NCBI RefSeq assembly: GCF_003231495.1 | Contig: NZ_PQWO01000012.1 | Coordinates: 60,001-92,000 of the forward strand | Direction: 5' to 3' | Length of the DNA stretch: 32,000 nucleotides | Source of the DNA: Acaryochloris thomasi RCC1774 | GTDB lineage: Bacteria; Cyanobacteriota; Cyanobacteriia; Thermosynechococcales; Thermosynechococcaceae | Shown: one piece after another, positions 376 through 23,572 of the stretch | How the letters are laid out: every line of letters begins with the position of its first letter | How positions within the stretch are numbered: the stretch's first letter is position 1 | The notes under the pieces: model-generated | The model's input: only the letters and a program-made list of their open reading frames with translations | Database searches by the model: none | Told to the model about the DNA's origin: nothing | Made by a program: the position numbers and the translations under genes

Positions 376-1270
376 AGCGATTCTTCGGTGACCAATGATG
401 TTGGAGAAAGGCTCCTGCTTCTGAGATCGCAACTCTCCCCTCCTCCAACATGGGTGCAAACAACTGAAAGCAGTGAATCATGTCTTGCCAAACCTTGAGT
501 TCTACGGCAACGTTGGCCAATGCCGCCTGATGGGCAAGCCGCAGAGCGTCGCCGAGTAAAATCTCTGCTGCCCCGACGTGAATCAGAAGCGGCGGTAGGC
601 CAGATAGATCAGCATAGATCGGTGAGATCAGAGGGTCCTTCACGTTCTCATGGGGAGCATACCAAGCAGTAAGAGTATCCATCAGTGTCCGAGATACCAT
701 CAGATCGAGGTGGCCATGAGTATCAATGGTGGAGCTGGTTTGGGTCAGATCGCAGTAGGGCGAGATCAGTAGCCCTGAAGAAGGCAGTATCTCTTTGGTA
801 TCCCTTAAAGACAGCAGGGCTGCCAAAGCGAGATTGCCCCCAGCGGAGTCGCCTGCGATCGCAACTTGGCTGGGATGAAACCGACGTGTCTCAACAAGCC
901 AGCGATAAGCCGTCAGCGTATCTTCTAGCGCTGCTGGGTAAGGATGCTCCGGTGCAAGGCGATAGTCAATCACCAACACCCTTGCGGATGACGCCTCTGC
1001 TAGATCGCTAGCAATACGTCGATAGGTTTGGCGTGTTCCCATGACAAAACCGCCCCCATGAAGATACAGAATGACGCGATCTGGATCACTATTGGGAAGG
1101 GTAATCAGCTCGGCAGGAACACCATCAGCATCGAGGGTCTGAACCTGGGCTGTGGGATGGGACGGCAGAGAAAAGCAGCGGTTAAAGTTCGCTCTCATCT
1201 CGGCGAGTGTATCGCCCCAAGAAAAATCCTGCAGCATCGAAAGAATGTTGTTCAGTTCATTTTGACTCAT
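287..1270 (-). CDS. alpha/beta hydrolase, hormone-sensitive-lipase-type esterase/lipase
   Basis: 327-aa ORF with the oxyanion motif LHGGGF and the nucleophile elbow GDSAGG, both typical of the alpha/beta hydrolase fold-3 (HSL) family. The C-terminal ~35 aa overlap the next gene. Confidence 0.9.
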   Translation of the reverse strand: MSQNELNNILSMLQDFSWGDTLAEMRANFNRCFSLPSHPTAQVQTLDADGVPAELITLPNSDPDRVILYLHGGGFVMGTRQTYRRIASDLAEASSARVLVIDYRLAPEHPYPAALEDTLTAYRWLVETRRFHPSQVAIAGDSAGGNLALAALLSLRDTKEILPSSGLLISPYCDLTQTSSTIDTHGHLDLMVSRTLMDTLTAWYAPHENVKDPLISPIYADLSGLPPLLIHVGAAEILLGDALRLAHQAALANVAVELKVWQDMIHCFQLFAPMLEEGRVAISEAGAFLQHHWSPKNRYEQETDRTMLASLSQSPASRYRTGRSLPR

Positions 1271-1353
1271 GATTAAGAAGGCTCCATATGAAGAACTGAA
1301 GGAAACGCAAGTACGAGGCTGTCTCTACGCTCCACTTAGCTGTTTGGTTTGGA

Positions 1354-1923
1354 CTATGCTTCGATCTGAATCTGAGGCACGATACTTACAGGGTTGGCCA
1401 TATTCCATAGGTTGGGCGAAGCCATCAGGGTCATCTCATAGATCTCTTGGAACTGTTTAGCGGTTGCGTCTCCTTTGACGATCAGTGTCCAATACAGTGA
1501 CTGACAACCAGGGACAATACTGGGATCGAGTCCAAAGAATCCACGCAGGTCTAAATACCCGCTGCTTTTAATCTCTGCCTTCTCTAGGCGAATTCCGTAG
1601 GCGGTGCAAAGCTCAGTGAAGGTTGCCAGAATGCAGGAATTAATTGCCGATAGCAGCACCTCTTGGGGATTGGGGCCCAAGTTTGAGCCACCGATTTCTT
1701 TTGGCTCATCAATCACCAGGGTGAAATCGCGATCATAGGTTTCACTGCCCCAATCAAAGGACTTGACGTGAGAGATAGAACGGGGACCGTCGACCCAGGC
1801 GCTTGAGACCTGGAAGGTTAGCTTGGCCTGGAGGGGATTGGTTGCGATCGCACCCGATAACTCTTCGAGTTCATTGAGATCAAAACCATTGAGAGTCTGT
1901 GCTTGTTGAGTTTGCATCATCAT
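1354..1923 (-). CDS. OsmC/Ohr family protein (peroxiredoxin-like)
   Basis: 189-aa ORF with GPNPQEVLLSAINSCILATF (the OsmC signature G.NP.ElLl.Al..C) and a second Cys in VPGCQS. Confidence 0.75.
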   Translation of the reverse strand: MMMQTQQAQTLNGFDLNELEELSGAIATNPLQAKLTFQVSSAWVDGPRSISHVKSFDWGSETYDRDFTLVIDEPKEIGGSNLGPNPQEVLLSAINSCILATFTELCTAYGIRLEKAEIKSSGYLDLRGFFGLDPSIVPGCQSLYWTLIVKGDATAKQFQEIYEMTLMASPNLWNMANPVSIVPQIQIEA

Positions 1924-2000
1924 TTTCCTTATCTAGAAATATAGAGGTCATTGAATAGAGTGATAGGTGCCCCCATTCGTTGTCTTGCTGAAGCATTGCC

Positions 2001-2930
2001 TCAAGAGAAAGCCTGCGTTGTCTCAGCAATCAGGTCATACCCATCAGGCCCTAACGTGCGCACGCTCTCTACAAAGTTGGGGTGGGTCATCCCTGCAACA
2101 AGAAAGGTTTGCTGATAGGAAACCGTTTGTTGTTGCTGAATCGCTTCTCTGTCAGTGAGAGAAAGCGATCGCTCGGTCACTCGCTCCAGACTGTCAATAT
2201 CGAGCTGCACCTGGTTTATCAGTCCTGCATTGAGGTACTGAATAACAGCGATGTAATCATCAATGCCGGTGGCAATGGCTGCAGCATCTAAGTCTCGGGC
2301 CATTGACTGCACCATCAGCGTATCGAGTCGAGCGTGTTGGGCTTCTTCCTGCCAGTGATGCTTTAACAGACTGCAGAACTGCGGATCGAGGTTCTCTCGC
2401 TGATTTTCACGCACGCTTTCGAGAAAGTGACGTTGGGTCATCCATTCAATGTGTAGTGTCATCAGAGCGACACCGAGAGAACTGTGCTGGAGAATGAAAC
2501 GGGCGATCGCCGATGATGGACCAATACAGTCATAAGGACTGCCGAACCCAGCTTCAAAAGCTTCTGCAAACCGACGGAACAAATGGATATGCTTGCTTTC
2601 TTCGCTTGCAACGCCCAGGAAAGCTTGAGTTGCTTCAATCTCATCACTGCCAATCGCCTGAATATGATTAACCACTAAGGGCAAGATGGCTTCCTCTAAA
2701 ACGCTAAATAAATATAAGTAGCTGTTGCCGCGAATCTGGTTGAGCTTAAGTTGCTCTGCAGAACTCAGGCTGGCGATGGCCCCTGTGTGAGCGAGTCCCT
2801 CAGGGAGGAAGGGTTTGAAAAAATCAAGCGAGTTTTTATCGTTAATCAAATCCTGGACACGCCAGTTGATTTTGGTCGCGTCTTTCAAGATTGATGAATA
2901 GGTATTGTCATAAGTTATAAGAGCGGCCAT
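2001..2930 (-). CDS. ferritin-like diiron oxygenase (AurF / N-oxygenase-like family)
   Basis: 309-aa helical ORF with two ExxH diiron motifs (ASEESKHIHLF and WQEEAQHARLD) plus additional conserved Glu (VLEEAIL, HIEWMTQRH). The layout resembles AurF-type diiron oxygenases. Confidence 0.7.
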   Translation of the reverse strand: MAALITYDNTYSSILKDATKINWRVQDLINDKNSLDFFKPFLPEGLAHTGAIASLSSAEQLKLNQIRGNSYLYLFSVLEEAILPLVVNHIQAIGSDEIEATQAFLGVASEESKHIHLFRRFAEAFEAGFGSPYDCIGPSSAIARFILQHSSLGVALMTLHIEWMTQRHFLESVRENQRENLDPQFCSLLKHHWQEEAQHARLDTLMVQSMARDLDAAAIATGIDDYIAVIQYLNAGLINQVQLDIDSLERVTERSLSLTDREAIQQQQTVSYQQTFLVAGMTHPNFVESVRTLGPDGYDLIAETTQAFS

Positions 2931-2996: not shown

Positions 2997-3050
2997 AGGC
3001 TAGAGAAGAGGGCGTTCCCGAAGCGTTCTTGAAACGTTCCTGAGACGTCT
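2997..3050 (-). promoter_or_regulatory. candidate promoter plus activator operator: four 11-bp-phased direct repeats abutting a -10 box (site A)
   Basis: On the plus strand CGTTC occurs at 3013, 3024 and 3035, and CGTCT at 3046, in exact 11-nt phase. In gene sense the array ends ...GGGAACGC, followed by 9 nt (CCTCTTCTC) and TAGCCT (TAnnnT, plus 2997-3002). The start codon of the diiron oxygenase is at 2930. The block is nearly identical to 15876-15907. Confidence 0.6.
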
Positions 3051-3338
3051 GGTCCTATTGGGAACAGGCACTGTTATGCCTTCAAACTGGGGTTCTCCAA
3101 AGGCGGTAAAGTCATTGAGATTAAGCGGGTCGGCATTGCCCTTCTGCAGCACAGCCAGCTGAGTACTGCCAAGGCGGAGGGTCGCCTTGTTCGCTTACTG
3201 AATAACGTCAAGATCTTCAAAGAGGAGTCCGTTCGACAGTCCGATCGGGTCTACAACTGTTGGAGAATTCCAGACACAAAAAAGCCGCCCTGGAGAACGG
3301 CCTTGGTAAATCCAATTGCTCTAAAAAACAGAGTCTGA
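3033..3338 (+). pseudogene. possible remnant of a LysR-type regulator (C-terminal substrate-binding part only)
   Basis: A stop-to-stop frame of 101 codons contains no ATG, GTG or TTG. It translates to ...KVIEIKRVGIALLQHSQLSTAKAEGRLVRLLNNVKIFKEESVRQSDRVYNCWRIPDTKKPPWRTALVNPI. This resembles the LysR C-terminal pattern (GlGIalLP......l..GrLV.ll........ly.vwr....sp..raf). The HTH and first ~200 aa are absent. Confidence 0.3.
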
Positions 3339-3348
3339 AATACTATGC

Positions 3349-4101
3349 TCACGTCAGGTTGAGTCCACCATCAGAGAGTAATATCTCGCCTGTAATGTAG
3401 TGGCTCACAATTAACATAGAAGCCACTTGTGCGATTTCTTCTGGCTGTGCGCCTCGACCCATAGGCGCCCGCATCTTCCAAAGCTCTCTTGCGGCAGTCC
3501 AATTCTGGCTCATAGGGGTGTTCACTAGGCCGGGTGCGATCGCATTCACCCGAATCGATGGTGCCAAACTCACCGCCAGCAATTTGGTCATATGGTTCAA
3601 AGCAGCTTTACTGACCGAATAGGGAACCGAAGCTCCCTTCGGTCGAATCCCGGCATGGGAACTGATATTTAGAATGCAGCTTGGGCATTCCTGACTTGAG
3701 GACTGGCGCAACGCGGCTTCAGCTTCGGTGATCAGTGTCCACGGCGCAATGACGTTGACTTCATACAGATCGCGCCAGATTTCCGGCGATGCTTCTTTTA
3801 ATGCCGTATGGGGGATTGCGGCGGTCACGCCAGCATTATTAACCAATGCATCTAGGCGACCGTAATGAGATAAAACCTCAGCGATTAACTGACGAGCTTG
3901 ATCTTGATCTGATAGATCAGCTTGGAAATAGGAGGCATCTGGGTATGCCGCAGCTAATTCTCGCCCTGCCGTCACGGAGGATTTGGAATGAAAGGCAACA
4001 GCGAAGTTGTCTCGAGCGAGCTGAGCTGCGATCGCTTTTCCAATGCCAGAAGTTGAGCCCGTCACCAGCGCAACTCTTTTGGGGTCCTTATCTCTGATCA
4101 C
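3349..4101 (-). CDS. SDR family oxidoreductase (short-chain dehydrogenase/reductase)
   Basis: 250 aa with the cofactor motif VTGSTSGIGKAIA, NNAG, and the catalytic S...YSVSKAA (YxxxK). Confidence 0.9.
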   Translation of the reverse strand: MIRDKDPKRVALVTGSTSGIGKAIAAQLARDNFAVAFHSKSSVTAGRELAAAYPDASYFQADLSDQDQARQLIAEVLSHYGRLDALVNNAGVTAAIPHTALKEASPEIWRDLYEVNVIAPWTLITEAEAALRQSSSQECPSCILNISSHAGIRPKGASVPYSVSKAALNHMTKLLAVSLAPSIRVNAIAPGLVNTPMSQNWTAARELWKMRAPMGRGAQPEEIAQVASMLIVSHYITGEILLSDGGLNLT

Positions 4102-4285
4102 AACTTGGCGCTTCTCATTTTGCTAAACTCAACCGACCGAGCCGTCCCCTAGAACTGATTTCAAACTATTCAGACCGGCACTCTCAAAGTGTTCTCTGGA
4201 CTTTGCAGCAATTCTTACACCTGGAGGAAGATGCCAATACCACTTCGAGAATGGCTAATCAGAAGCTCTCTACTGATGCGATGAT

Positions 4286-4678
4286 CTAAGAATGAACCTC
4301 ACTGACAATCATTGCATCGATCTCCACGAGTTGATGCTCATAGGCCAGTCGCGCTACGCCCAGTAATGTAGCTGGGGGGACATCATTGTTGAACCACTCC
4401 GTAACCGCCTGCCATGCAGCCATGAGAGTTGGATGATCTCCAACGACGTAGATTTTTAGCTGGCGAATATCACGTTTATCAAAACCATGCAGCGTGATTA
4501 GCGTTCGCAAATTACCAAGGCACTGATTCACCTGAACATGGGGCTTGCCGATGCCAACCAGATTTGCCTCAGAATCGTGCGGCACCTGACCGGAAATGAA
4601 CAGTTGTGGACCAATGCGCTGAGCATATTGGTAGTTAGGAGTCTGGGCTAGCCCTGCTGCTATTTCATGCTCGTTCAC
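4286..4678 (-). CDS. RidA/YjgF/endoribonuclease L-PSP family protein
   Basis: 130 aa with LFISGQVP..., IKIYVVG and a C-terminal LVEIDAMI, typical of the RidA fold. Confidence 0.8.
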   Translation of the reverse strand: MNEHEIAAGLAQTPNYQYAQRIGPQLFISGQVPHDSEANLVGIGKPHVQVNQCLGNLRTLITLHGFDKRDIRQLKIYVVGDHPTLMAAWQAVTEWFNNDVPPATLLGVARLAYEHQLVEIDAMIVSEVHS

Positions 4679-4827
4679 TTCAGGTTCCTTGTTAGATTTT
4701 CAGCTTTGTGAGAGATCAAGAGTCTTTGGGCCTATTCTTTCGATTACGTTTGAGCTGAACGCTGGTTACTGAGGCTCAGTATTGCAGCCTTACTTGAACC
4801 GCAGAGGCTGAGCGCAAATCCTGAGCA

Positions 4828-5100
4828 TCAATGAGAGGCGGCGGCCACTGCAGGCGTAATCAGATCGACGGTCCAAATGCGGACAAAAGGTAGCCCAGCT
4901 TTACGAAAGGACCGCTGGACGGTCTCAGCATCAGGAGCCTCAAATTCACAGATGACCTGGGTGCGATCGCAACCCATCATCGACCTCACCCAGTGAACGT
5001 TGTGGGCTGTATGGCAAGGAATGCCAATGGCAACATCTCGGTCCCATTTTTCTGGTGTAATCGGTGGATCAAAATGCTTTTCAACAAGGACGCGGACCAT
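4828..5100 (-). CDS. DUF4242 domain protein (SCO4226-like small alpha/beta protein)
   Basis: 90 aa. The pattern ...HWVRSMMGCDRTQVICEFEAPDAETVQRSFRKAGLPFVRIWTV matches the DUF4242 consensus as I recall it (W..s..s.D......C.yeApd.e.vre...raglp.d.i.ev). Confidence 0.55.
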   Translation of the reverse strand: MVRVLVEKHFDPPITPEKWDRDVAIGIPCHTAHNVHWVRSMMGCDRTQVICEFEAPDAETVQRSFRKAGLPFVRIWTVDLITPAVAAASH

Positions 5101-5244: not shown

Positions 5245-8200
5245 CTAAGCTGTGTGGATAGGAGCGTCTAGCTGGGTCGATATATTTGCGATCGCAACTC
5301 TAGCCCGAGCAGCCAGACCCAGCGGATTTATTTTCTGCAGGTCTCGAAAATGCGTCTCAGCAAGCTCAAGCTCGCCAATTGCTAGATAACCCTGAATCAA
5401 CGTTGCCAACACCAGGGCAACATCACTAGGATGATCAACAACTCGGGCTGCCTCCAGCGCCATTTGGCATCGGGAGATAGCGCGTTGGGGTTCGCCTCGC
5501 TCCAAGTCTTTCTCCGCAGCGGACGTCAGCGTATAGGCCAGACTTCGCTGAGCATCGACGCATTTCAGCCTGTCTAACGTCTGTTCTAACTCCGTTTCAG
5601 CTTCTGAAGGCTGCAGCCAGTATTGCGATAAAGCCACCAGCGCCGCTGCAACAGCCCCTTCATTGCCACCGCCAAGCTGAGCGGCAACAGTCGTGAGTTG
5701 CCGACAATAATCTAATGCCGCAATCGCATTTCCGCTTTCAAGTTCTAGCATCGCTAAATATGAAACACAGGTGAATTCTCGCCAGTGATCCTGCATATAT
5801 TGGGCAATCTGCCGCGCCTGCGTCAGCAACAGACGCGCCTGCTCATCGTCACCGTGATACCGGCGAACACAGCCTAGCCCACAGGGAATATCGAAGGGTT
5901 CTAGCCCGACTCGACTAGCCAGAGATTGAGCCTCTAACAGCAGAGCCTCAGCCCGCTCCATCTCGCGGCCAATATCCGATAGACACCAGCCTGTATAGGC
6001 CAGCATTTGAGCCATCACGGTAGGACTTGCGCTGCGACCTTGTTCTACGGCCTTCAGACACTGTTGATGGACATCTGCGAGATTGTCTTGCTCATAGTGC
6101 AGCGCAATCAGAACTTCTAGCCCTAGAGCCTCTTCATCTGGCAGGCTGAGTCTTCGGGCCTCTAGCAGTAGCTGGTTCAAGCTGACTTCGACCTGCTGGG
6201 CCTGCACTTTATCCATCCCAGCCAGCACACAAACCTTGAGCAGACGCAAATGCAGACTGATTCGGACTTCAGGTGGTAAAGATTGGCACTGTTCAATCCC
6301 CCACCGCGCCAGTGCTGCGGCATCAGTATAGGCAAACAGGCGCAGGCCGCGTTCGGCTGCTGCCAGTAGAGATGTCGCGGCAAGTTCAGGATCCTGCCCT
6401 ATGGCTGCGTGACGGGCAATATCACTGGCTAAAGCGTCATCAGAACTCGTCAGTTTCTGTAGCTGGTGAGCGATATGTCGATGCATCAGCCGTCGACGAG
6501 GCTCAGAGGGTTGGCCATAGGCAACCTGTCGGACAACATCATGGGTAAAGAGATAGACCGCTTCACCGTCATCCCTAATGTCTGGACTGAGAATACCCTG
6601 CTGTTCTAGCTCTTCTATCGCGGTCAAGAAGGTTGTCAGCGGACAGTCCGCGATCTGAGCGACCTGCATTGGATCAAAGCTGCGCCCCATTGCTGCAGCC
6701 CAGGTCAAAAGATCCTGTGTAGAAGTGTCGAGCTGCTGCAGCCGCTCCTGAACTAGCGCCTCTAAGTTGTCAGCATCCGCTGAGTAGCCAGATGCGATCG
6801 TACGCGCAATTTCCAGGGCAAACAGGGGATTGCCACCGCTGTCGGTATAGATGCGATCGCTATCCAAATCCGCGTCAATGGTCTGGGTCAGCTCCGTCGT
6901 GGCCTGACGATCCAATGGCTCTAGGGGGATGACTTGGAGTTTGCGATCGCGTCTGAGCGTTTTCACGAGCTGACAAGCTGCGGCGTTGGCTTCCAGATCT
7001 CGGTGACGGGCTGCACAGGCAAACTGAATCGACGAGTGTCCCAACAGGCAAACAACATAGTTCAGCAGGGCCGTCGAAATTTCATCAAGCCATTGAATGT
7101 CGTCAAAAATGATCACCAGCGGGACTGACTGCTTCGCCAGCCCAGTCAGGTATTCAGCCACTGCATCGAAGAGGCGACTACGATCGATCTGAAGTTCCGG
7201 GTCACCCGGCTCAGGGAAGAGTGTTCCCAGTTCAGCAGGGAGCTGGCTAGGCAGCGCATCCAGCCAAATGCTGAAGGGCCTGACTTTTTCAGCTTCAAAC
7301 CCACGTCCCCAAAGCACCTGTCCCCCCATATCCTGGACCGCTGAACGCAGCGTTTCCAGAACTCGGGTTTTGCCAATGCCTGATTCTCCTAGCAACAGCA
7401 GAGATAAGTGAGAGCCGAGCCACCCTTGAATCATTTCCCATTCTTGCCGACGTCCGATGAGAGATGACGTTGAGGGTAGAGTCGCGAGTGGCTTCCCCTG
7501 AGAAGCGGCTATAGGAACGTTAGATATCTCAGCATTCGTCGCTGCAGCGGTCTTAATTTGCTCAACAGCACCCAACTGCTTGAGCGACATTCTCTGAGCT
7601 TCGGTTAGCCCCCTTGCATGGAGGATATTGGTTCTGTCATAGGGGCGCGCACCGCGCAGGACCGCCACACATTCGCCCGTTTCTCGGTCCCAGAGGTGAA
7701 CCGTTTCATCCTGGCTGCCGCTAGCCAGCAGGTGACCCTCAGGGCTAAAGGTTACGGCCCAAGCCAGATTGGTGTGTCCCTCCAAGGTCTGGAGACAGCC
7801 TCCTGTTCGTACATCCCAGAGCTTGACTGTTTTATCGCTGCTGGCGCTGGCGAGACATTGACCATCAGGACTAAAGGCCACGGACCACACCCGACTGCTG
7901 TGACCTTCGAGTGTTTTCAAGCACTGGCCCGTTTTCAGATTCCAGAGCTTGATGGAATGGTCTCCGCTACCGCTGGCGAGGTGTTGCCCATCGGGACTCA
8001 AGGCAATGGACCAGACCCAGTTGCTGTGCCCCTCAAGGGTCTGACAGCAGGCTCCCGTAAAAGGATCCCAAATTTTAATGGTTTGGTCATAGCCACCACT
8101 GACCAACCTGAGGGATTCGGCTGGGCAAAAAGCCACTGAACAGACCCAGTTTGTGTGCCCCTTCAACGTGCGTAAGCATTGGCCCGTATGGACATCCCAA

Positions 8201-11200
8201 AGTTTAATCGTTTGATCTTCACTGCCGCTGGCTAAGAGGCCCCCCTCTGGACTGAAGGCAACTGACCAAATCCTGCTGGTGTGTCCTTTCAAAGTCCGTA
8301 AACACTGGCCGGTCTCAAGATCCCAGAGCTTGATGGTTTGGTCTTCGCTGCCGCTGGCGATCAGATGATCTTGGGGACTGAATCTAACGGCACAGACGGC
8401 ATCGGTATGTCCTGACAGCGTTTGCCGATAGGTCGGTCCTTCTACATTCCACAGCTTGATCTGGTGGTCGTCATTGGCGCTTGCCAAAATGCCGCCGTAG
8501 GGATGTTGCGCAGAACCGGGACTGAAGGCAACGGACCAGACGCGATCAATATAGCCCTGGAGTGTTCTCTGGCACTGACCGTTGGTCCCCCATAGCTTGA
8601 CGGTGTTGTCACCACTGCCGCTAGCGAGGGTTTTTCCATCGGGGCTGAAGGCGACAGAGCGAATCCAGTTACCATGTCCTCGAAGGGTTTGACGACAGTT
8701 CCCTGAAGCGATTTGCCAGAGCCTGATGGTCCTATCTTCGCTGCCGCTGGCGAGGGTTTCTCCGTCAGGGCTGAAGGCAATGGAGCGCACCCAGTTGGTG
8801 TGTCCAGACAAGGTTTGAATACAGTGGCCGGTCTGAGTGTCCCAAAACTTGATCGTGCAGTCGCTGCTGCTGCTGGCTAGTCTGTTGCCTGAGGCATAGG
8901 CTAAGGACCACACCCGTTTTGAGTGCCCCTCTAGCGTCTGTTCACACCGTCCCGTTTCCGTCGCCCAGAACTTAATAGTTTGATCATCACTGCCGCTGGC
9001 GATTGTTTTCCCGTTGGGGCTGAAGGTGACGGAGCGCACCCAGTCGGTATGGCCGGTTAGGGTCTGGTGACAGGCTCCTGTTTCTAAGTCCCAGAGCTTG
9101 ACGGTGTGATCTTCGCTGGCGCTGGCGAGGAGGGGTGTTGTGGGGTGGAAGGCCACTGACCAGACTTGAGCTTTGTGATCAAACGTTTGCCGACATTGAC
9201 CTGTTTCTAGATCCCAGAGTTTGATGGTGCGATCGCTACTCCCGCTCGCCACAGTACCGCCATCGGGACTAAAGGCCACGGACCAGATCCAGTCTGTATG
9301 TCCCGAACAAATAAGCAGATTTCGGCCATCCTCAACGCTCCAGATGCGAATCTCACCTTTCGCATCTCCAGTGGCTAGACGTGTTCCATCAGGGCTGAAC
9401 GCTAGTGCTAGCGGCAAGCTCAGCGTTTCTATAAAGGCAGCCTGAGACAGATCAGCCTCCTGTAGGTTGCAGTCGGATAAATGAACCCGACGTAAATCGG
9501 CCTGCCGCAGCGCTAGTCCTGAGAAGTCATAGTGCTCCAAGACCGGGCTGGACTGGCTCAGCAGATTGAGAATGTTGCCCGCCGCGTAGCTCGACTGTAA
9601 GGTGGGATCGCTGTGCAGCCCCGCCAGAGCCTGACGCAAGCAGGGTTCACTGTTCGCCTCGCTGCCGCACTGACCGGACAAACCGTTGAGGACCGGCTGC
9701 AGAATCTCTCGAATTTGAATTTCGCGAATGTAGTCGCTACTCTGAGCCTTGAGCAAAGTATGGGTGCAGAAAAGGGCGGTGGCAGATAGATTCTCCTGCT
9801 CTGCTTCCGTCTCTGAAACTTGACCAAGAGTCAAAATCTCATGGCAAACCTGGTCTACAAGCTGTGCAGTAACGTACTCCATAACCACTGGCTGTTGGGC
9901 ATAGCGGCCTGCTTGTTTTTCAAGTAGCGATCGCCACATCAGCGACTCCAGGGCTTCTAGGAGTGCCGACCGCGAGGTTTGAGGCACAAGATCTTCGGCG
10001 AGTTCAGCAATCGCAGTCCACTCCCGGTTGATGGCTAACCAATACATGACCGATTGCTCTAGGGGCGTGCAGCGCTGGAACTGCTGTTCTAATAGTTGAT
10101 GAATACCGCTGAAGATGCCTGCGCCGGGTCGATGGAAGGCGGCAATGTCACCATCAAACAAGTCTTGAATGGAGGTGGCGACAATTTTTAGGGCCAAGGG
10201 ATTGTGGCCGTAGAACTGGCACAGGTCCTGCTGCTGTTGTTCTGTTCCGATCAGACCCTTGGTCTGGACCAGGGTCATCGCGGCTTCTGGCGAACCATTC
10301 AATAGGAGCGATCGCACCGGCAGATCCATGCCCTCTAATGCAGAAAATTCTCGCGGCTTCTCGCGGCTGGTGAGGATCAAGCAGCTTTGATGGTGGGTCT
10401 CTCCCATCAACCGCAGGAGTTCTCCGTAGTTTTCGTAGCCGGGGTGATACTGTCCAGAGCGCTGGTCTCCTTTTAAAAGCGTTTCAACGTTGTCTAGAAT
10501 CAGCAGGCATCGGGTCTGACGCAGGCCATCCATCAAACGAGCTAAGGTTGGCTCTGTTTCCTGCTGGTCAGAGATAATGGGGACGATCTCACCCATTAGG
10601 GTTTCTAGGCTAGGGGCATTCCGCAGAGATCGCCAAACAATGCAGTCAAATTTATCGTCAGCATCAGACCCTAATTGAGAATGCTCAACGAGGACCTGTG
10701 CTAGCTTCACCGATAGGGACGTCTTGCCAATACCGCCCATGCCTAGCAAGACAATGACGCGACAGCGATCCGCCAGGGTCCACTGCTCCAGCATTTCTAG
10801 TTCATCGGCACGTCCATAGAAGAGGCTGACATCCGGAGCGTTTCCCCAGTCGCAGCGTAGAGAGGAAGCTCCTGTTGATGTCTCGGAGGCTGATCGGTGG
10901 ACCTCTACGTATCTATCTTGCTGGGCATTTTGGTGATTTGTTAATAACGCTGGTTCGTCGAGGAGATGTTGATAGAAGGCTTGAATTGATTGACTGGGGT
11001 CGATTCCTAGCTCTTCTTGTAGGGTCGTCATGCAGCGATGATAGACCTGCAGGGCTTGGGTGCGGTCGCCGTTGGCGAGATGCGATCGCATCAAGTATTC
11101 ATAAGCAGTTTCACTCAGCGGATCCATCTGCAGAAGCTGCTGGGCATAGCGAATCACCTGGCTATGGTCTCGCTGTATCTGCAAAAGCTGCAGCAGCCCT

Positions 11201-11772
11201 GCATAAGCTTGAATGCAGGATTGATGGAGTCGCTCGCGCTCAGCTTCAATCCACTCGTCATAGCAGCTCGGCAGTAATTTCCCTTCATAGAGCTTGACTG
11301 CCTGCTGCAGAGCTGAGCCAATTGTTTTCAACTGCTCGGGCTGACGGGTTACAAGCTCATCTGACTGATCGACGAACAAAGAGACAGCTCGCTCAAACTC
11401 ATTGACATCAAGGGTATAGGGAGACTCTAAACGCCACTGGATGGACTGTGTGTCAACCGCAATGAACTGCTCTGAATCTGGAAAAACCTGGCGCAGAGAA
11501 TGGAGATTTCGTCGCAGGTTCGTTCGCGCCTGCGAGTCACTGGAGTCTGGCCAGAGGCGAAATGCAATCTGCTGTCGAGATTGAGGCGTATGTCGATGCA
11601 GCAGCAAGTAGGCCAGCAGGGACTGCAGCCGCTTCGGTATCTTCCCACCGATGGACTTTTGTTTGTAGATCAGGTCAAAGCCACCTAAGAATCTTATTCG
11701 TAAGATTTTTGGCACACTCACATACCTTCTTGAAACGGTGGAAGCTTCAAGTGGATAGCCCCACGATCTCAT
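5245..11772 (-). CDS. giant STAND regulator: SARP (OmpR-type wHTH + BTAD), NB-ARC, pentapeptide, 14 WD40 repeats, fused to a second AAA_16 P-loop and TPR-like module
   Basis: Single 2175-codon ORF.
- wHTH+BTAD, about 10945-11715: ILRIRFLGGFDL...LLAYLLLHRHTPQSRQQIAFRLWPD...LRRNLHSLRQ, then LYEGKLLP..YDEWIEAERERL...ALQVYHRCMTTLQEELGIDPS.
- NB-ARC: Walker A GMGGIGKT at 10720-10743 and Walker B CLLILDNVE.
- Pentapeptide-like tract at 9435-9531.
- WD40 array at 7650-9411.
- Second P-loop LLLLGESGIGKT at 7366-7389 and Walker B LVIIFDDIQWLDE at about 7085-7122.
- Helical/TPR-like tail from about 6500 down to 5245.
The true start may be the GTG at 11715 (AGAAGG lies 9 nt upstream), which would give (M)PKILRIRFLGG. 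Confidence 0.9.
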   Translation of the reverse strand: MRSWGYPLEASTVSRRYVSVPKILRIRFLGGFDLIYKQKSIGGKIPKRLQSLLAYLLLHRHTPQSRQQIAFRLWPDSSDSQARTNLRRNLHSLRQVFPDSEQFIAVDTQSIQWRLESPYTLDVNEFERAVSLFVDQSDELVTRQPEQLKTIGSALQQAVKLYEGKLLPSCYDEWIEAERERLHQSCIQAYAGLLQLLQIQRDHSQVIRYAQQLLQMDPLSETAYEYLMRSHLANGDRTQALQVYHRCMTTLQEELGIDPSQSIQAFYQHLLDEPALLTNHQNAQQDRYVEVHRSASETSTGASSLRCDWGNAPDVSLFYGRADELEMLEQWTLADRCRVIVLLGMGGIGKTSLSVKLAQVLVEHSQLGSDADDKFDCIVWRSLRNAPSLETLMGEIVPIISDQQETEPTLARLMDGLRQTRCLLILDNVETLLKGDQRSGQYHPGYENYGELLRLMGETHHQSCLILTSREKPREFSALEGMDLPVRSLLLNGSPEAAMTLVQTKGLIGTEQQQQDLCQFYGHNPLALKIVATSIQDLFDGDIAAFHRPGAGIFSGIHQLLEQQFQRCTPLEQSVMYWLAINREWTAIAELAEDLVPQTSRSALLEALESLMWRSLLEKQAGRYAQQPVVMEYVTAQLVDQVCHEILTLGQVSETEAEQENLSATALFCTHTLLKAQSSDYIREIQIREILQPVLNGLSGQCGSEANSEPCLRQALAGLHSDPTLQSSYAAGNILNLLSQSSPVLEHYDFSGLALRQADLRRVHLSDCNLQEADLSQAAFIETLSLPLALAFSPDGTRLATGDAKGEIRIWSVEDGRNLLICSGHTDWIWSVAFSPDGGTVASGSSDRTIKLWDLETGQCRQTFDHKAQVWSVAFHPTTPLLASASEDHTVKLWDLETGACHQTLTGHTDWVRSVTFSPNGKTIASGSDDQTIKFWATETGRCEQTLEGHSKRVWSLAYASGNRLASSSSDCTIKFWDTQTGHCIQTLSGHTNWVRSIAFSPDGETLASGSEDRTIRLWQIASGNCRQTLRGHGNWIRSVAFSPDGKTLASGSGDNTVKLWGTNGQCQRTLQGYIDRVWSVAFSPGSAQHPYGGILASANDDHQIKLWNVEGPTYRQTLSGHTDAVCAVRFSPQDHLIASGSEDQTIKLWDLETGQCLRTLKGHTSRIWSVAFSPEGGLLASGSEDQTIKLWDVHTGQCLRTLKGHTNWVCSVAFCPAESLRLVSGGYDQTIKIWDPFTGACCQTLEGHSNWVWSIALSPDGQHLASGSGDHSIKLWNLKTGQCLKTLEGHSSRVWSVAFSPDGQCLASASSDKTVKLWDVRTGGCLQTLEGHTNLAWAVTFSPEGHLLASGSQDETVHLWDRETGECVAVLRGARPYDRTNILHARGLTEAQRMSLKQLGAVEQIKTAAATNAEISNVPIAASQGKPLATLPSTSSLIGRRQEWEMIQGWLGSHLSLLLLGESGIGKTRVLETLRSAVQDMGGQVLWGRGFEAEKVRPFSIWLDALPSQLPAELGTLFPEPGDPELQIDRSRLFDAVAEYLTGLAKQSVPLVIIFDDIQWLDEISTALLNYVVCLLGHSSIQFACAARHRDLEANAAACQLVKTLRRDRKLQVIPLEPLDRQATTELTQTIDADLDSDRIYTDSGGNPLFALEIARTIASGYSADADNLEALVQERLQQLDTSTQDLLTWAAAMGRSFDPMQVAQIADCPLTTFLTAIEELEQQGILSPDIRDDGEAVYLFTHDVVRQVAYGQPSEPRRRLMHRHIAHQLQKLTSSDDALASDIARHAAIGQDPELAATSLLAAAERGLRLFAYTDAAALARWGIEQCQSLPPEVRISLHLRLLKVCVLAGMDKVQAQQVEVSLNQLLLEARRLSLPDEEALGLEVLIALHYEQDNLADVHQQCLKAVEQGRSASPTVMAQMLAYTGWCLSDIGREMERAEALLLEAQSLASRVGLEPFDIPCGLGCVRRYHGDDEQARLLLTQARQIAQYMQDHWREFTCVSYLAMLELESGNAIAALDYCRQLTTVAAQLGGGNEGAVAAALVALSQYWLQPSEAETELEQTLDRLKCVDAQRSLAYTLTSAAEKDLERGEPQRAISRCQMALEAARVVDHPSDVALVLATLIQGYLAIGELELAETHFRDLQKINPLGLAARARVAIANISTQLDAPIHTA
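7650..9411 (-). repeat. intragenic array of 14 WD40 repeat units (~126 nt each, two predicted 7-bladed propellers)
   Basis: Fourteen units fit GH(T/S)xW(V/I)xSVAFSPDGxxLASGSxDxTIKLWDxxTGQCxxTL. Each ends in (I/V)(K/R/H)(L/F/I)W: IRIW, IKLW, VKLW, IKFW, IKFW, IRLW, VKLW, IKLW, IKLW, IKLW, IKIW, IKLW, VKLW, VHLW. Neighbouring units look only about two-thirds identical at nucleotide level by eye. Confidence 0.9.
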
Positions 11773-12087: not shown

Positions 12088-12648
12088 TTATTTGGATACG
12101 GGGAGTGTCGTTGACTCTCCAGTTGACGCGTCTAGACCGACAGGCTGGTTGAAAGTCAGGCTTATCGTTGCTCTCTTCTCAACATCAAGTGACCCTTCTT
12201 GAATGAATTGGCTCTCGCGAACTGTTCCTTTGCGTGCCCGTTGATCATTGTGATAAATGTCTCCTGTCTCTAGGTCGTACTCTAGCTCTAGCGCGACACC
12301 GTCAAAAAAGCTGATGTCAACAGGCTCATCATTTTGAGGTCCGTCGTTGTCATATAGCTCAACCCGAATCGGCACCCTAGCTTTTGAAGTCTGTTTTGTC
12401 TGAGTGAGGTCGAATCCGGCTGAATTAAAATTATTACGGCCTTGATCGGAACCTATTTCCTGATCGTCGACAAAGAGCACGGCTTTCAACTCAGATCGTC
12501 GCTCAGTTTTATTATCAACTTCATCGAAAATTATCCTGGGGTCAGTATCGGTACGAACAACGCTGAACGTTCTGGTTGATCGAGATTGTGCTCGTGCGCC
12601 TCCTTTAGCGAGAGTTGGTGTAGAGCTAACTAACGCAGGAAGAGCCAT
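12088..12648 (-). CDS. hypothetical secreted protein (no family recognised)
   Basis: 186-aa ORF from the first canonical start. The in-frame upstream codons (to 12687/12696) encode a textbook Sec signal peptide, so the real start is probably non-canonical (see findings). The mature part is acidic and beta-rich (VELYDNDGPQNDEPVDISFFDGVALELEYDLETGDIY). The gene is lower in GC than its neighbours by eye. Confidence 0.6.
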   Translation of the reverse strand: MALPALVSSTPTLAKGGARAQSRSTRTFSVVRTDTDPRIIFDEVDNKTERRSELKAVLFVDDQEIGSDQGRNNFNSAGFDLTQTKQTSKARVPIRVELYDNDGPQNDEPVDISFFDGVALELEYDLETGDIYHNDQRARKGTVRESQFIQEGSLDVEKRATISLTFNQPVGLDASTGESTTLPVSK

Positions 12649-12744
12649 TGCTGCCAGTAAACCGAACGCAATAAGTTGGCGTTTTATAGCTTGAATATCC
12701 TTGGATTGAATTAAGTGGGCTTGCTAAGTGTTTTGAACAATTCA

Positions 12745-12792
12745 AAGGTATTTAGCTAGGCGTTATAAAAGAATTTTAGAAGCGTCCAGTAA
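12745..12792 (-). promoter_or_regulatory. possible weaker third copy of the 11-bp-repeat promoter (site C)
   Basis: On the plus strand GCGTTATAAAA lies at 12760-12770 (8/11 to GCGTTCCCAAA) and GCGTCCAGTAA at 12782-12792, 22 nt later, resembling the distal aCGTCCTGAG unit of site B. The middle unit is not conserved. In gene sense, 9 nt after the proximal repeat lies TACCTT (TAnnnT, plus 12745-12750), the same geometry as sites A and B. Confidence 0.3.
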
Positions 12793-12916
12793 ATGTTTTA
12801 TGATGTCTTTTGTTCGCAAAATATAATTAATTTAGAGGTGAAGCTTGCCCCAAATCTTGCTAAAGAATACAGATAGAAACGAAATAAATTTTATTAGAAA
12901 AAGTATATTCTTCTCC

Positions 12917-12943
12917 AAAAAAAAGCCCTCCTTGATGGAGGGC
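12917..12943 (-). terminator. Rho-independent terminator downstream of the HMGL-like gene
   Basis: Minus-strand reading is GCCCTCC-atcaa-GGAGGGC followed by TTTTTTTT. On the plus strand the A8 run is 12917-12924 and the stems are 12925-12931 and 12937-12943. It lies 74 nt after the stop at 13017. Confidence 0.75.
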
Positions 12944-13016
12944 GCACACAGGATATATCAAAAGTAGGGATAGTGGTGCGTTAGTACAGACCCCTAGTCT
13001 AGGTTTTACGTATTCT

Positions 13017-13847
13017 TTAAATTCTCCCAGACATTATATTGGTCACCTGCTCTGCAGCTTGCTCAAGCAGATCGGTCTTAACATTGGTGTAGTAATCAGG
13101 ATGCTTTGCGATCGCATCTAAAATTCCTCCTAAATCTGCATTCCCCTTCCTCACCCCTAGACCCTTGATCGAACACCCAACTTGTCGAGCACCGGCCTGA
13201 ATCGCCGCCAGCGAATTCTCAACCGCCAGCCCGCGATCGTCACGGCAGTGAACAGAAAGCGTCACCTGATCAATATTGGGCACCTGCCTTTTGAGTAAAG
13301 CAATGAGGCCTGCGAATGATTCCGGTTCAGCCACACCCGCCGTATCAGGAATATTGATTGTCGTTGCCCCACCCTCAATCGCCGTTTCCACCGCACAGCA
13401 GAGAAATTCTGGTTCACTCTTGAGGGCATTGAAAGCTGACCACTCTATGTCAAAAGAATAGTTGCGGGCGAGGACAAGGGTCTGACGGATCAGTTCTAGA
13501 AGTGCTGATCGGTTGAAAATGGCCTTCTGCTGCACTGGCGTGTAGACATGAATCCGCCCTCGTGCAGCAGACCGTAGGGCAAGGGCGACATCAATGACTT
13601 CATCAGGCTTGGAGCCTGCCAAACCACAAATGGCGGTCTGCTTGATCCGTTTTGAAACCATCAGCAGCTCATCAAAGTCTTTGCGGAAGGCACCGGGATA
13701 GCCGGCCTCAATCACATCAATCTGCATTTTTTCAAGTAATTCGGCAATTTGAACCTTTTGATAGAGCGTCATTCTCACCCCCGGCATCCGTTCACCGTCC
13801 CGGAGGGTGGTGTCAAAAATTGTAATTTTCGATGGAGAAGCCGTCAT
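13017..13847 (-). CDS. HMGL-like / 2-isopropylmalate-synthase-like TIM-barrel protein, truncated and with degenerate catalytic motifs
   Basis: MTASPSKITIFDTTLRDGERMPG...IDVIEAGYPGA...INIPDTAGVAEP...SVHCRDDRGLAVENSLAAIQAGA...GLGVRKGNA matches the LeuA/HMGL family backbone. I place the start at the ATG at 13847. The track ORF begins at a TTG at 13946, adding a Cys/Arg-rich 33-aa extension that is unlikely to be real. Confidence 0.75.
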   Translation of the reverse strand: MTASPSKITIFDTTLRDGERMPGVRMTLYQKVQIAELLEKMQIDVIEAGYPGAFRKDFDELLMVSKRIKQTAICGLAGSKPDEVIDVALALRSAARGRIHVYTPVQQKAIFNRSALLELIRQTLVLARNYSFDIEWSAFNALKSEPEFLCCAVETAIEGGATTINIPDTAGVAEPESFAGLIALLKRQVPNIDQVTLSVHCRDDRGLAVENSLAAIQAGARQVGCSIKGLGVRKGNADLGGILDAIAKHPDYYTNVKTDLLEQAAEQVTNIMSGRI

Positions 13848-13942
13848 AACAATGGGGAACACAGTATGGGGGAAAGGCGTTGAGCAACCACCGCGCTCAT
13901 GGATCCTTGATCGACGGGCCAGTCGACCGCACAGGCAGTCAC

Positions 13943-14533
13943 TCAACTCTGGAGCGCTGGGGGGTAGCGCACCATTGGGAAAATAGGAGGAGAATCGTTC
14001 ACCTGGATAGTGGTCAGCACCTCAAATCCGTGGCGTTCGTAGAAGGGAATGTTGTCGGGATTGGATGATTCAAGATAGGCCAGTTGGGCGTTGCGATCGC
14101 ACTCCCTCAGCACAGGCTCCATCAGGGCAGATCCGTGTCCTCTACGCTGCTGTTCTGGTTCAACGCCCAGCAATGCCAAATACCAGTGGGGCGCTTCAGG
14201 ATGACAGTTGCTCATCGCTTCGAATAGAGCAAACACGGTGTCTAGATCGGGGGAAACAGTTCGCTGAAGCAGAGTATTGAGAGCCTGATTTTCGGGATAG
14301 CTCCCCGGTGCCTGCCACAGCGCAGTTCCAGCGTTATTCTCAGCGGCATATGCCGTATCGGCATCAAAGGCAGTTCCACCTAACAACTGCACAAAATCAG
14401 GGAAGTACGTAAGGTACTGATGGGAGTTGGGATAAAGCCAACGCACTGCCGGATCGGTGCGAAAAGCAAGTACTAAAGCATCGATCATCGCATCCACTTT
14501 AGTGCTTGGTTCTCTGAGGGAGAGGGCTGTCAT
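13943..14533 (-). CDS. GNAT family N-acetyltransferase
   Basis: 196 aa with the acetyl-CoA binding core LLGVEPEQQRRGHGSALMEPVL...AYLESSNPDNIPFYERHGFEV. Confidence 0.85.
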   Translation of the reverse strand: MTALSLREPSTKVDAMIDALVLAFRTDPAVRWLYPNSHQYLTYFPDFVQLLGGTAFDADTAYAAENNAGTALWQAPGSYPENQALNTLLQRTVSPDLDTVFALFEAMSNCHPEAPHWYLALLGVEPEQQRRGHGSALMEPVLRECDRNAQLAYLESSNPDNIPFYERHGFEVLTTIQVNDSPPIFPMVRYPPALQS

Positions 14534-14699
14534 GATCTTGATCTCCTAAAGATTGGTCGTGGGTAGCAGGGCCTGACTTCAAACCTTGGCGATGATCTGT
14601 TACTACTAAGGTTGAGAACTGGCTCGTGTCCAGCAGTGACGCCGAAGAAAGCAGAGCGTTGGAGTAACGCTGTCCGATGCGGCAAATTTGGCACATGCT

Positions 14700-15776
14700 T
14701 TAGCTCTTTTTGACGATGTAGAAATTATTCTGAAAGTCGTGGTCGAGCTGCTTGATTTCCACTTGCTTGAATCCGGCCTCTTCTAGCATCTCTAGCGCTT
14801 TTTCTTCTCCCCACATGGCTCCAAGCCCCAAGCCCCCAGCGGCGAGAGAAACGGTCATGCAGTGCAGACAAGAGATGGTGTAAAGCAATGGCCCAACTGG
14901 ATGCTCTAGGTTCCCGCTCACGTCACTAGCGGCGCGAATATCCTGCATGAAGTAGGTACCGTTGGGTCGTAAGGCCCGGTAGATGTTATTGAGGACCACA
15001 TCAGGTTTGGCCTGATCGTGGATTGCATCAAAGGTGGTGATCAAGTCGTACTGCTCGACAGCATCCAGGGTCGCGGCATCCTTGATCTGGAACCGGACGT
15101 TGGTCAACCCTTGGGACTGCGCTTCAATGTTGGCAGTTGCGATCGCTTCTTCCGAAAAATCATACCCAGTAAAGCGACTGTGAGGGAACAGCATCGCCAT
15201 CTGATTGAGAGCACGACCGCTACCGCAGCCAACATCCATAACCTCAATGCCGCGCTCTAAAGCATCAACCAAACCGGGCATGAGGGGCAAAACATGCTCC
15301 ATTAATGCTGCAACGACCGTTTGGCCACTATCTTCGGCCATCACTTGGTGAAAGCGCTTATATTCTGAATAGGGAACGCCACCGCCGCTGTAGAAGCAGT
15401 CGATTACTTGGTCTTCAACGCTGCCCAGTAGTGGAATGTACTGACTAAATGCTGCCAAATTATTGGGGGAGGCAGTGCGGGTCAAGAAGGCCGCATGTTC
15501 TGACGGCAGATGATAGGTTTGCTCGATGGCGTTATAGTCCACAAATCTTGCGGTTACCATTGCCCCCAGCCACTCGCGGACGTAACGTTCTTGCAGTCCA
15601 GCAGCATCAGCAACGGCCTGACTTGTCGCAGGAGGGAGCTGAGCTAGGGTATCAAATAGACCGGTACGGTGACCGATGGAGGTCATAAGTGCGACTGCAC
15701 CACCGTTGAGCGTATCTAGAAGCCGATCGGCAAAAGCTTCGGCTTTCATCTCCTTGAACACTTGTGCTGTCATCAT
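14700..15776 (-). CDS. class I SAM-dependent methyltransferase with N-terminal winged-helix-like domain (Rv2258c-like)
   Basis: 358 aa with motif I VMDVGCGSGRAL, an acidic loop YDFSEEA, and post-I/II motifs DLITTFDAIHD and LRPNGTYFM. The N-terminal ~150 aa form a helical dimerisation/wHTH-like region. Confidence 0.85.
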   Translation of the reverse strand: MMTAQVFKEMKAEAFADRLLDTLNGGAVALMTSIGHRTGLFDTLAQLPPATSQAVADAAGLQERYVREWLGAMVTARFVDYNAIEQTYHLPSEHAAFLTRTASPNNLAAFSQYIPLLGSVEDQVIDCFYSGGGVPYSEYKRFHQVMAEDSGQTVVAALMEHVLPLMPGLVDALERGIEVMDVGCGSGRALNQMAMLFPHSRFTGYDFSEEAIATANIEAQSQGLTNVRFQIKDAATLDAVEQYDLITTFDAIHDQAKPDVVLNNIYRALRPNGTYFMQDIRAASDVSGNLEHPVGPLLYTISCLHCMTVSLAAGGLGLGAMWGEEKALEMLEEAGFKQVEIKQLDHDFQNNFYIVKKS

Positions 15777-15860
15777 CGGTTTCTCCTAGTAGCGAAAAAG
15801 CCGGAGGCTCAAATGGGCCTGCCGAGAGGAAACTTAGGTTTTATGTAACTCGATGATTGA

Positions 15861-15903
15861 AATTTAGCGGGGCAAGCGTTCCCAAAGCGTTCCCAAAACG
15901 TCC
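15861..15903 (-). promoter_or_regulatory. candidate promoter plus activator operator: three 11-bp-phased direct repeats abutting a -10 box (site B)
   Basis: On the plus strand CGTTC occurs at 15877 and 15888, and CGTCC at 15899, in exact 11-nt phase (GCGTTCCCAAA GCGTTCCCAAA aCGTCCTGAG). In gene sense the array ends ...GGGAACGC, followed by 9 nt (TTGCCCCGC) and TAAATT (plus 15861-15866). The methyltransferase start codon is at 15776. Confidence 0.6.
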
Positions 15904-15936
15904 TGAGTTTTTATGACTCTTCTTTCCATAGAACAA

Positions 15937-16012: not shown

Positions 16013-16501
16013 CTAGGCCGTCACGACCTGAAGCACAAGCGCCCTCTTGTCAAAGACCTGCACCTCACCTGCGCTGTTCAAATCAGCAATGACGCGCTTG
16101 AGTAAATCGATGGCACGATCGCGGTGCTGGTGCTCTCGCCCTCTGAGGCGGACCTGAAACCGCACCATATCACCTTTCTTAAGCCACTGCAGCGCCCGCT
16201 TAATGCGTACGCCGTAATCTGCATCTCCAACATTGGGTCGCAGCTTGACCTCTTTTAAAGAGGGCTTCGAAGAATTTTGCTTTTGATTTTTCTTGCGGTC
16301 GTAGCGAAACCGGCCAAAATCTAAAATCTTTGCCACAGGTGCGCTTTTACGCTCAGACACAACCACTAGGTCTAGCTCTGCTTGTTTTGCAAGCGCCAAA
16401 GCCTCCTGAGTGTCGGTCACGCCGTGGTTGGTGCCATCTTTATCAATGAGCAAAACCTGGGGAGAATCAATGCGATGGTTAACTTTTGACTTACTTAGGA
16501 T
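16013..16501 (-). CDS. infC: translation initiation factor IF-3, with non-canonical AUC start
   Basis: The sequence ...VNHRIDSPQVLLIDKDGTNHGVTDTQEALALAKQAELDLVVVS...EVKLRPNVGDADYGVRIKRALQWLKKGDMVRFQVRLRGRE is an unmistakable IF-3. The track ORF starts at an internal TTG (16453) and lacks the conserved N-terminus. The frame is open up to a stop at 16523-16525 with no ATG, GTG or TTG. ATC at 16499-16501 sits 7 nt after GAGGTG. Confidence 0.85.
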   Translation of the reverse strand: MLSKSKVNHRIDSPQVLLIDKDGTNHGVTDTQEALALAKQAELDLVVVSERKSAPVAKILDFGRFRYDRKKNQKQNSSKPSLKEVKLRPNVGDADYGVRIKRALQWLKKGDMVRFQVRLRGREHQHRDRAIDLLKRVIADLNSAGEVQVFDKRALVLQVVTA

Positions 16502-23535: not shown

Positions 23536-23572
23536 GACATTCTCTAAAGAGCGTTGAGCATTATTCAGGAGA

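Follow-up and report, generated by a model that had tools for sequence, protein, structure and literature searches.

Phased direct repeats upstream of two gene units of Acaryochloris thomasi RCC1774 as probable SARP-type, activator-dependent promoters

Organization of the locus

The window analysed here, a stretch of 32,000 nucleotides from Acaryochloris thomasi RCC1774, carries on its minus strand all the genes from position 287 to 15776 (Table 1). Two of its transcription units, each of three genes, are preceded by an array of 11-bp direct repeats next to a -10-like hexamer, hereafter site A and site B, and a giant regulator-like protein is encoded between them. The methyltransferase that heads the site B unit is 100% identical to the NCBI protein P0001 (Acaryochloris thomasi), which was probably annotated from the second Met, because its length is 357 aa. 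This enzyme is 70-83% identical across cyanobacterial orders. PADLOC and NCBIfam searches of the window returned generic matches only, with no defence-system or equivalog assignment, and Rfam gave no match in it, so that an RNA element is not indicated.

Table 1. Coordinates of the features discussed in the text (positions of the window; r1 is the repeat proximal to the gene; repeats are given in gene sense).
Feature	Coordinates	Strand	Remarks
Site A unit	287..2930	-	three genes
Alpha/beta hydrolase	287-1270	-	site A unit
OsmC-like protein	1354-1923	-	site A unit
309-aa protein, weak AurF-like di-iron match	2001-2930	-	first gene after site A
Site A -10 hexamer TAGCCT	2997..3002	-	9 nt from r1; start site predicted at 2990
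Site A array	3012..3055	-	four repeats in phase
Site A r1 TTCGGGAACGC	3012-3022	-	
Site A r2 TTCAAGAACGC	3023-3033	-	
Site A r3 CTCAGGAACGT	3034-3044	-	
Site A r4 GGACCAGACGT	3045-3055	-	
Terminator-like hairpin after SDR gene	3281..3304	-	would screen site A from upstream transcription
Genes between regulator and site A	3349..5100	-	same families adjoin the regulator in related clusters
SDR	3349-4101	-	
Candidate fourth site, upstream of SDR gene	4156..4210	-	6.0 bits, ~95th percentile of null; borderline
RidA/L-PSP	4286-4678	-	
SCO4226-like	4828-5100	-	
Candidate activator	5245..11772	-	2175 aa, between sites A and B
ORF downstream of site C	12088..12648	-	186 aa, without Pfam or NCBIfam match
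Site C (weaker, new)	12738..12792	-	TTACTGGACGC TTCTAAAATTC TTTTATAACGC, 9 nt, TACCTT (12745-12750)
Terminator-like hairpin, 3' of site B unit	12917-12943		
Site B unit	13017..15776	-	three genes
HMGL-like enzyme, truncated isopropylmalate-synthase-like	13017-13946	-	site B unit
GNAT	13943-14533	-	site B unit
SAM methyltransferase, Rv2258c-type winged helix (HTH_65 domain)	14700-15776	-	first gene after site B
Site B -10 hexamer TAAATT	15861..15866	-	9 nt downstream of r1
Site B r1 (proximal) TTTGGGAACGC	15876..15886	-	GGAACGC core predicted at ~-28 to -22
Site B r2 TTTGGGAACGC	15887..15897	-	core predicted at ~-39 to -33, usual place of a -35 hexamer
Site B r3 ACTCAGGACGT	15898..15908	-	GGACG variant, 11-bp phase kept
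Terminator-like hairpin at infC end	16015..16029	-	would screen site B from upstream transcription

Site B, on the minus strand at 15861-15908, consists of three in-phase 11-bp direct repeats of the unit TTnnGGAACGC, 9 nt and the hexamer TAAATT, and reads in gene sense ACTCAGGACGT TTTGGGAACGC TTTGGGAACGC, then TTGCCCCGC as the 9 nt between last repeat and hexamer, and then TAAATT. Read on the plus strand, GCGTTCCCAAA stands at 15876-15886 and 15887-15897, ACGTCCTGAG at 15898-15907 and the hexamer, as AATTTA, at 15861-15866, the ATG of the downstream ORF being found at 15776, 85 nt downstream of TAAATT. The start site is predicted to be the A at 15854, within a conserved TCA 5-7 nt past the hexamer. 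The array, spacing, hexamer and ATG described for this site in the first-pass annotation are thus all borne out by the letters. The indel that it had also placed in the third repeat stands as a variant unit (GGACG), a form of the third unit also present in related genomes, and not as a break in phase, since all three ACG cores are 11 bp apart.

Site A (2997-3055) reads in gene sense GGACCAGACGT CTCAGGAACGT TTCAAGAACGC TTCGGGAACGC, followed by CCTCTTCTC and TAGCCT, its positions 3012-3044 being GCGTTCCCGAA GCGTTCTTGAA ACGTTCCTGAG. In both sites the ACG cores recur at intervals of exactly 11 bp, and the sequence agrees with the earlier claim that repeat phase, orientation and hexamer distance are the same at both. 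Flanks of the two sites are unrelated, the likeness being limited to ~33-43 nt. Neither intergenic region contains a canonical -35/-10 pair, which together with the terminator-like hairpin upstream of each site indicates that both units need their own promoters; these are probably activator-dependent.

Some further reading frames of the window are worth recording. A 65-aa ORF on the minus strand (14499-14696) starts 4 nt past the methyltransferase stop and overlaps the GNAT start, and a small ORF (56-90 aa) occupies the same position after the methyltransferase in L001, L004, L007, L008 and L009, five of the related loci described below. A 56-aa ORF (MISTTDERGVINNFAKDPVASAAEYPSEAQQRRYWIMGAASTVFMAGVFALAYAVS) is present in two tandem copies on the plus strand (26477-26647 and 26712-26882; 93% DNA identity), each with its own upstream region, a C-terminal hydrophobic helix and no Pfam match. 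On the minus strand at 22540-24544, a radical-SAM protein with DUF3641 adjoins a class I methyltransferase, a pair that presumably resembles the ArsS/ArsM arsenosugar genes of cyanobacteria.

Significance of the arrays within the window

Tandem Repeats Finder located period-11 arrays at exactly two places of the window, 3013-3048 and 15874-15901. With zero mismatches, CGTTC-N6-CGTTC occurs within it at sites A and B only; tolerating one mismatch raises the count to 6, where 1.3 would be expected, and 0 of 100 shuffles attain it. A 43-nt degenerate pattern comprising three repeats, spacer and TAnnnT retrieved 2997-3039 and 15861-15903 and nothing else, 100 shuffles giving 0 matches, and a 37-bit pattern covering both sites had zero occurrences in shuffled windows.

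A position weight matrix (PWM) built from 49 non-redundant sites, all aligning in phase, scored site A at 54.8 bits and site B at 53.6 bits. It also revealed a weaker site C upstream of the 186-aa ORF, whose score of 18.2 bits is to be compared with a maximum of 11.6 among 200 Markov-shuffled windows. A fourth site upstream of the SDR gene is possible from its score, but very weak (Table 1).

The product of the 186-aa ORF aligns with a gene of the related locus L051 (36% over 160 aa), and the A. marina C2-domain protein matches this same gene; direct BLASTP between both proteins is not significant (E 0.045). Because of this shared match, the 186-aa protein may tentatively be considered a distant relative of the box-carrying C2-domain proteins of related clusters.

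Conservation of the box in related genomes

Related loci were gathered via homologues of the methyltransferase of the window and of the A. marina regulator, exact look-up of the methyltransferase and of the AurF-like protein in the contig index having given no match. Gene order is conserved among four loci, one of A. marina and three on related metagenomic contigs (L004, L007, L008 and L009), and runs regulator, SCO4226-like, second SCO4226-like or L-PSP, and methyltransferase, then DUF4336, SDR, GST and C2-domain protein. The box has its own place in the Acaryochloris-like clusters, which run regulator, SCO4226-like, box, methyltransferase.

When these four loci were searched with a loose regular expression, two RRACG cores 11 bp apart with the -10 left free, nine sites beyond A and B were found, all in gene sense and all showing three or four repeats, then 9 nt and TAnnnT. 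The distance from GGAACGC to TAnnnT is therefore 9 nt (8 nt if the usually conserved following T is counted) at 11 of 11 sites found without any constraint on the -10. Independent evidence for this spacing is confined to these 11 sites, and several of them are orthologous to one another.

A 37-bit pattern fitting all 11 sites was then scanned against one genome per species, covering 185,579 species. By DNA pattern alone, 52 matches were obtained against ~9 expected by chance, in all of which the 9-nt spacing is set by the search pattern; 38 are cyanobacterial, including Leptolyngbya, Myxacorys, Egbenema and Altericista. No A. thomasi or A. marina contigs were returned, though the window has two exact matches. 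Several sites can coexist in one genome, with six in Phormidium tenue FACHB-886 and five in strain FACHB-502. Conservation extends to positions that the pattern left unconstrained, namely T at unit positions 1-3, the G's in the third repeat, and a TCA(G) that stands 5-8 nt past the -10 and likely marks the start site.

Regarding the genes next to the boxes, a methyltransferase orthologue (64-73% identity) is the first ORF downstream in at least 12 of the 52 scan loci, and in L043 the box lies upstream of the orthologue of the site A gene (AurF-like, 62% identity). Other genes downstream of boxes encode L-PSP, GNAT, a second SCO4226-like protein, and PPC-, C2- or RTX-domain proteins. Phylogenetic footprinting, suggested as a check in the first-pass annotation, thus speaks for its proposal, the same orientation and 9-nt spacing recurring at methyltransferase orthologues of many cyanobacteria and site A having its counterpart in L043.

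The methyltransferase promoters of L010-L061 show additional features. Their 9-nt spacer often holds the HIP1 octamer or a near copy of it, as in TGCGATCGC TAACTT, and a conserved AGATTCAGATGC comes after the -10. Such conservation exceeds what an activator model alone needs; a second factor or a conserved 5' leader might account for it. HIP1 (GCGATCGC) is frequent in the window. Non-cyanobacterial matches, namely L012 (Anaerolineae), L044 (Bacillota), L026, L029, L040 and L041, include several with three clean in-phase RRAACG repeats, two of them with a SARP gene nearby, and on this basis SARP proteins of Chloroflexi, Firmicutes and further phyla may employ the same type of box.

The candidate regulator

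The protein encoded at 5245-11772 contains, in this order, a SARP domain, an NB-ARC/NACHT NTPase (aa 318-472), ~14 WD40 repeats (aa ~767-1366), a second NTPase of the AAA_16 type and a TPR-like C-terminal region. Scanned whole it yielded WD40 matches only, the other domains coming from scanning it in pieces. Its SARP domain comprises an OmpR-type winged helix and a BTAD (aa ~22-275). The BTAD (PF03704, aa 122-271) scores 90 bits against a cut-off of 22.1, and Trans_reg_C (aa 48-102) stays at 21.3 bits, under its Pfam cut-off of 26.2. In phmmer searches the first 300 aa match AfsR (E 1e-9) and EmbR (E 1.5e-7), with aa 21-275 aligning with EmbR residues 8-259, and the winged-helix half alone retrieved no AfsR or EmbR match from the PDB.

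An AlphaFold model of these first 300 aa, built with 47 homologues, reached a pLDDT of 92.3 and a pTM of 0.82. Its closest structural counterparts are the AfsR SARP domain as seen in the transcription initiation complexes 8hvr and 8k60 (E ~1e-10, target TM 0.77-0.82), followed by EmbR, and the alignment extends over ~257-263 columns of whole AfsR SARP chains, winged helix included. On the grounds of the alignment with AfsR and EmbR, the model itself and its best fold matches, the N-terminus is assigned as a SARP domain; the sequence of the winged-helix half being weak when taken alone, the assignment of this half relies on the full-domain alignment and the fold match.

The STAND NTPase and repeat sensor that define the large, AfsR-like SARPs are both found in this protein, and its double NTPase module departs from the canonical AfsR layout. 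Over its C-terminal 809 aa the A. thomasi protein shares 54% identity with a 1033-aa SARP-AAA_16 protein of A. marina NIES-2412 (residues 255-1009), the SARP domains of both proteins being 45% identical, and in A. marina an NB-ARC-WD40 protein is the divergent neighbour of this separate 1033-aa SARP protein. As far as these alignments tell, the A. thomasi protein resembles a fusion in which a SARP-NB-ARC-WD40 protein has gained the NTPase/TPR body of the usual regulator, with the loss of one SARP domain. SARP-AAA_16 proteins of 1000-1060 aa are widespread in cyanobacteria (863 relatives at E<1e-50). Searches of the protein collection found neither the A. thomasi protein itself nor any relative of its N-terminus above 56% identity.

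Linkage of the box to SARP genes and alternative explanations

A SARP-domain ORF, as detected with an HMM of this domain, lies inside 14 of the 52 scan loci, each of them only 8 kb long, and two further loci show the C-terminus of the regulator at their edge (14-16 of 52 in all). Two of the 14, L012 (Anaerolineae) and L044 (Bacillota), are not cyanobacterial; in L012 the SARP gene is divergent and 200 bp off the box. Boxes also occur in loci without a methyltransferase within 8 kb. Methyltransferase loci without a SARP neighbour, ~72 in total (L001, L006 and ~70 metagenome loci that had been retrieved by the methyltransferase alone), show no box. The sole metagenome locus with a SARP neighbour, L066, carries a variant box, three TTGACGC units 11 and 22 bp apart followed by 8 nt and TAAATT. 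The box thus follows the regulator, not the methyltransferase.

The variant box of L066 (9863-9915) lies between the divergent SARP gene and a methyltransferase orthologue (63% identity), and could be a natural specificity variant for comparison of recognition helices.

OmpR/PhoB regulators bind tandem direct repeats with ~11-bp phasing, replacing the -35, and PhoB-type promoters share with sites A and B a direct-repeat geometry that ends ~10 bp upstream of the -10. The repeats might on these grounds be bound, as in a Pho box, by a two-component response regulator of this family encoded elsewhere. We nonetheless judge this unlikely: the window encodes no DNA-binding response regulator, its sole receiver protein being a GGDEF fusion, and related clusters likewise show no winged-helix regulator with the receiver domain that characterizes the PhoB/OmpR type. 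Moreover, box and SARP genes go together across phyla, methyltransferase loci that lack a SARP neighbour also lack the box, and the OmpR-type motifs known in cyanobacteria, the SphR Pho box and the RpaB HLR1, differ from it in sequence.

Autoregulation by the methyltransferase through its own winged helix (HTH_65) has in its favour that this N-terminal domain is present in the first gene after site B, that many boxes lie upstream of methyltransferase genes and that orthologues are named 'transcriptional regulator' in some database entries. The linkage data argue against it, considering that orthologue loci devoid of a SARP neighbour are devoid of the box as well and that boxes exist where the methyltransferase is absent. 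Furthermore, winged helices of the Rv2258c type serve for dimerisation in small-molecule methyltransferases, and such a dimer, being symmetric, would be expected to favour inverted over head-to-tail repeats. This explanation was rejected as highly improbable.

The likeness of sites A and B (~27 of 33 positions) is unusual for targets of a single transcription factor, yet the notion that their shared 33-nt block is a non-regulatory remnant of a repeated, mobile or MITE-like element, a promoter duplication or a product of chance is scarcely credible and was rejected, since the likeness ends at the block amid unrelated flanks, the block always stands in gene sense at a fixed distance from the -10, shuffles give 0 matches, and the element recurs at orthologous promoters in dozens of genera with the drift typical of binding sites. 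Sites of the NtcA, LexA, Fur and LysR types were also rejected, those known in cyanobacteria being palindromic or of other sequence.

Proposed mechanism and implications

Considering (i) the linkage between box and SARP genes, and (ii) the precedent of the SARP family, sites A and B are likely SARP-type activator-dependent promoters whose candidate activator is the protein encoded at 5245-11772, and site C is probably another of them. The common activator that the first-pass annotation had postulated for sites A and B finds support in the conserved box, in the SARP-family regulator gene situated between the sites and in a repeat geometry matching that of SARP promoters (PMC10936776). A SARP paralogue encoded elsewhere in the A. 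thomasi genome could be the binder instead.

According to this SARP-type model, the three or four head-to-tail 11-bp units (TTnnGGAACGC) would present their cores on one face of the helix, the last unit ending 9 nt from the -10, and the two proximal cores, at ~-28 to -22 and ~-39 to -33, would stand in for the -35 element. On the pattern of Streptomyces AfsR, SARP domains of the regulator would bind side by side, one protomer per repeat, and by touching sigma region 4 and core RNA polymerase would recruit the polymerase to promoters devoid of a -35, the NTPase and WD40/TPR regions gating this activity upon a signal. The expected outcome is that the methyltransferase-GNAT-HMGL unit, the AurF-like-OsmC-hydrolase unit and the gene for the 186-aa protein are induced together. 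The analysis itself shows how the repeats are built, that they are conserved and linked to SARP genes, and that the N-terminus of the regulator has the SARP fold; binding, activation over repression, the start sites, co-expression and the signal are what we infer. The boxes are most likely served by the SARP-STAND regulator, in which case the region from ~287 to 15908 would be one regulator-centred gene cluster.

A broader reading, which we regard as speculative and rather doubtful, is that the cluster belongs to an NLR-like circuit widespread in cyanobacteria and in some Chloroflexi and Firmicutes, in which giant STAND receptors with WD40/TPR sensors and a SARP output, triggered by an intracellular ligand or by stress, would directly induce a small conserved set of genes (SCO4226-like, winged-helix methyltransferase, GNAT, RidA, and C2/PPC/RTX-domain proteins) as a stress or immunity programme unrelated to antibiotics. 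Were this so, two sensors would be joined on one output in the A. thomasi protein, whose single SARP domain is fused to two NTPase modules.

Regulons of the SARP type have been described in antibiotic-producing actinomycetes, where work on the regulators has treated them almost exclusively as switches of antibiotic clusters; within the limited paper collection searched, no regulon was found for a cyanobacterial SARP or for the SARP-STAND family. The present analysis provides a concrete cis-element, (TTnnGGAACGC) x3-4, 9 nt and TAnnnT, together with a candidate regulator and a conserved target set. This element is relevant to the SARP-STAND proteins of ~1000-2200 aa that are widespread in cyanobacteria, permits regulon prediction in dozens of genomes, and ties a highly conserved cyanobacterial methyltransferase to a defined regulatory input. 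Since the NTPase and TPR regions of AfsR inhibit activation until ATP is bound (PMC10936776), the SARP domain alone is suggested as a means of activating the cluster.

Comparison with known systems

In SARP target promoters the direct repeats are spaced by 11 or 22 bp and the 3' one lies 8 bp off the -10; at the afsS promoter the two 11-bp repeats of the afs box span -40 to -19, overlapping the -35 (PMC10936776). Sites A and B show this same head-to-tail arrangement, with the 3' repeat ~8 bp from a predicted -10 and the position of the -35 overlapped. The closest counterpart is the afs box of the S. coelicolor afsS promoter, bound by AfsR (PMC10936776; 8hvr, 8k60), also made of head-to-tail 11-bp repeats lying over the -35 with the last one ~8 bp from the -10. 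When the conserved A 7 nt after the -10 is taken as the start site, the cores here fall at -28 to -22 and -39 to -33, in agreement with the contacted parts of the afs box at -29 to -22 and -40 to -33. Protein architecture also concurs: in AfsR, too, the SARP domain precedes a STAND-type NTPase and a repeat sensor, and it superimposes on the modelled N-terminus of the A. thomasi protein (TM 0.77-0.82). By contrast, the repeats here have another sequence (GGAACGC) and number three or four where the afs box has two, the host is a cyanobacterium whose -10 is of the sigma-70 type (TAnnnT), and the regulator, only ~22% identical to AfsR, is far larger, with NB-ARC, WD40 and a second AAA_16/TPR module. 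Its presumed targets are small enzymes and putative secreted proteins, rather than afsS or an antibiotic cluster.

The small actinomycete SARPs ActII-ORF4, DnrI and RedD, which recognize heptamer repeats, are likewise encoded within the cluster that they control, and several promoters of such clusters have the same phased direct repeats beside the -10. They differ in consisting of the SARP domain alone and in governing defined antibiotic pathways, whereas here gene content varies among genomes around a core of SCO4226-like, methyltransferase and C2/PPC-domain genes, and no biosynthetic product is evident. Pho boxes of PhoB/OmpR regulators share with our sites the binding of winged-helix proteins to tandem direct repeats phased by one helical turn that replace the -35, but they are bound by phosphorylated receiver-domain regulators, whereas the linkage observed here is to SARP/BTAD genes. 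Finally, EmbR of M. tuberculosis (2fez) has the same fold, an OmpR-type winged helix plus a BTAD, and departs from the A. thomasi protein in its FHA domain, its control by Ser/Thr kinases and its lack of NTPase or WD40 modules.
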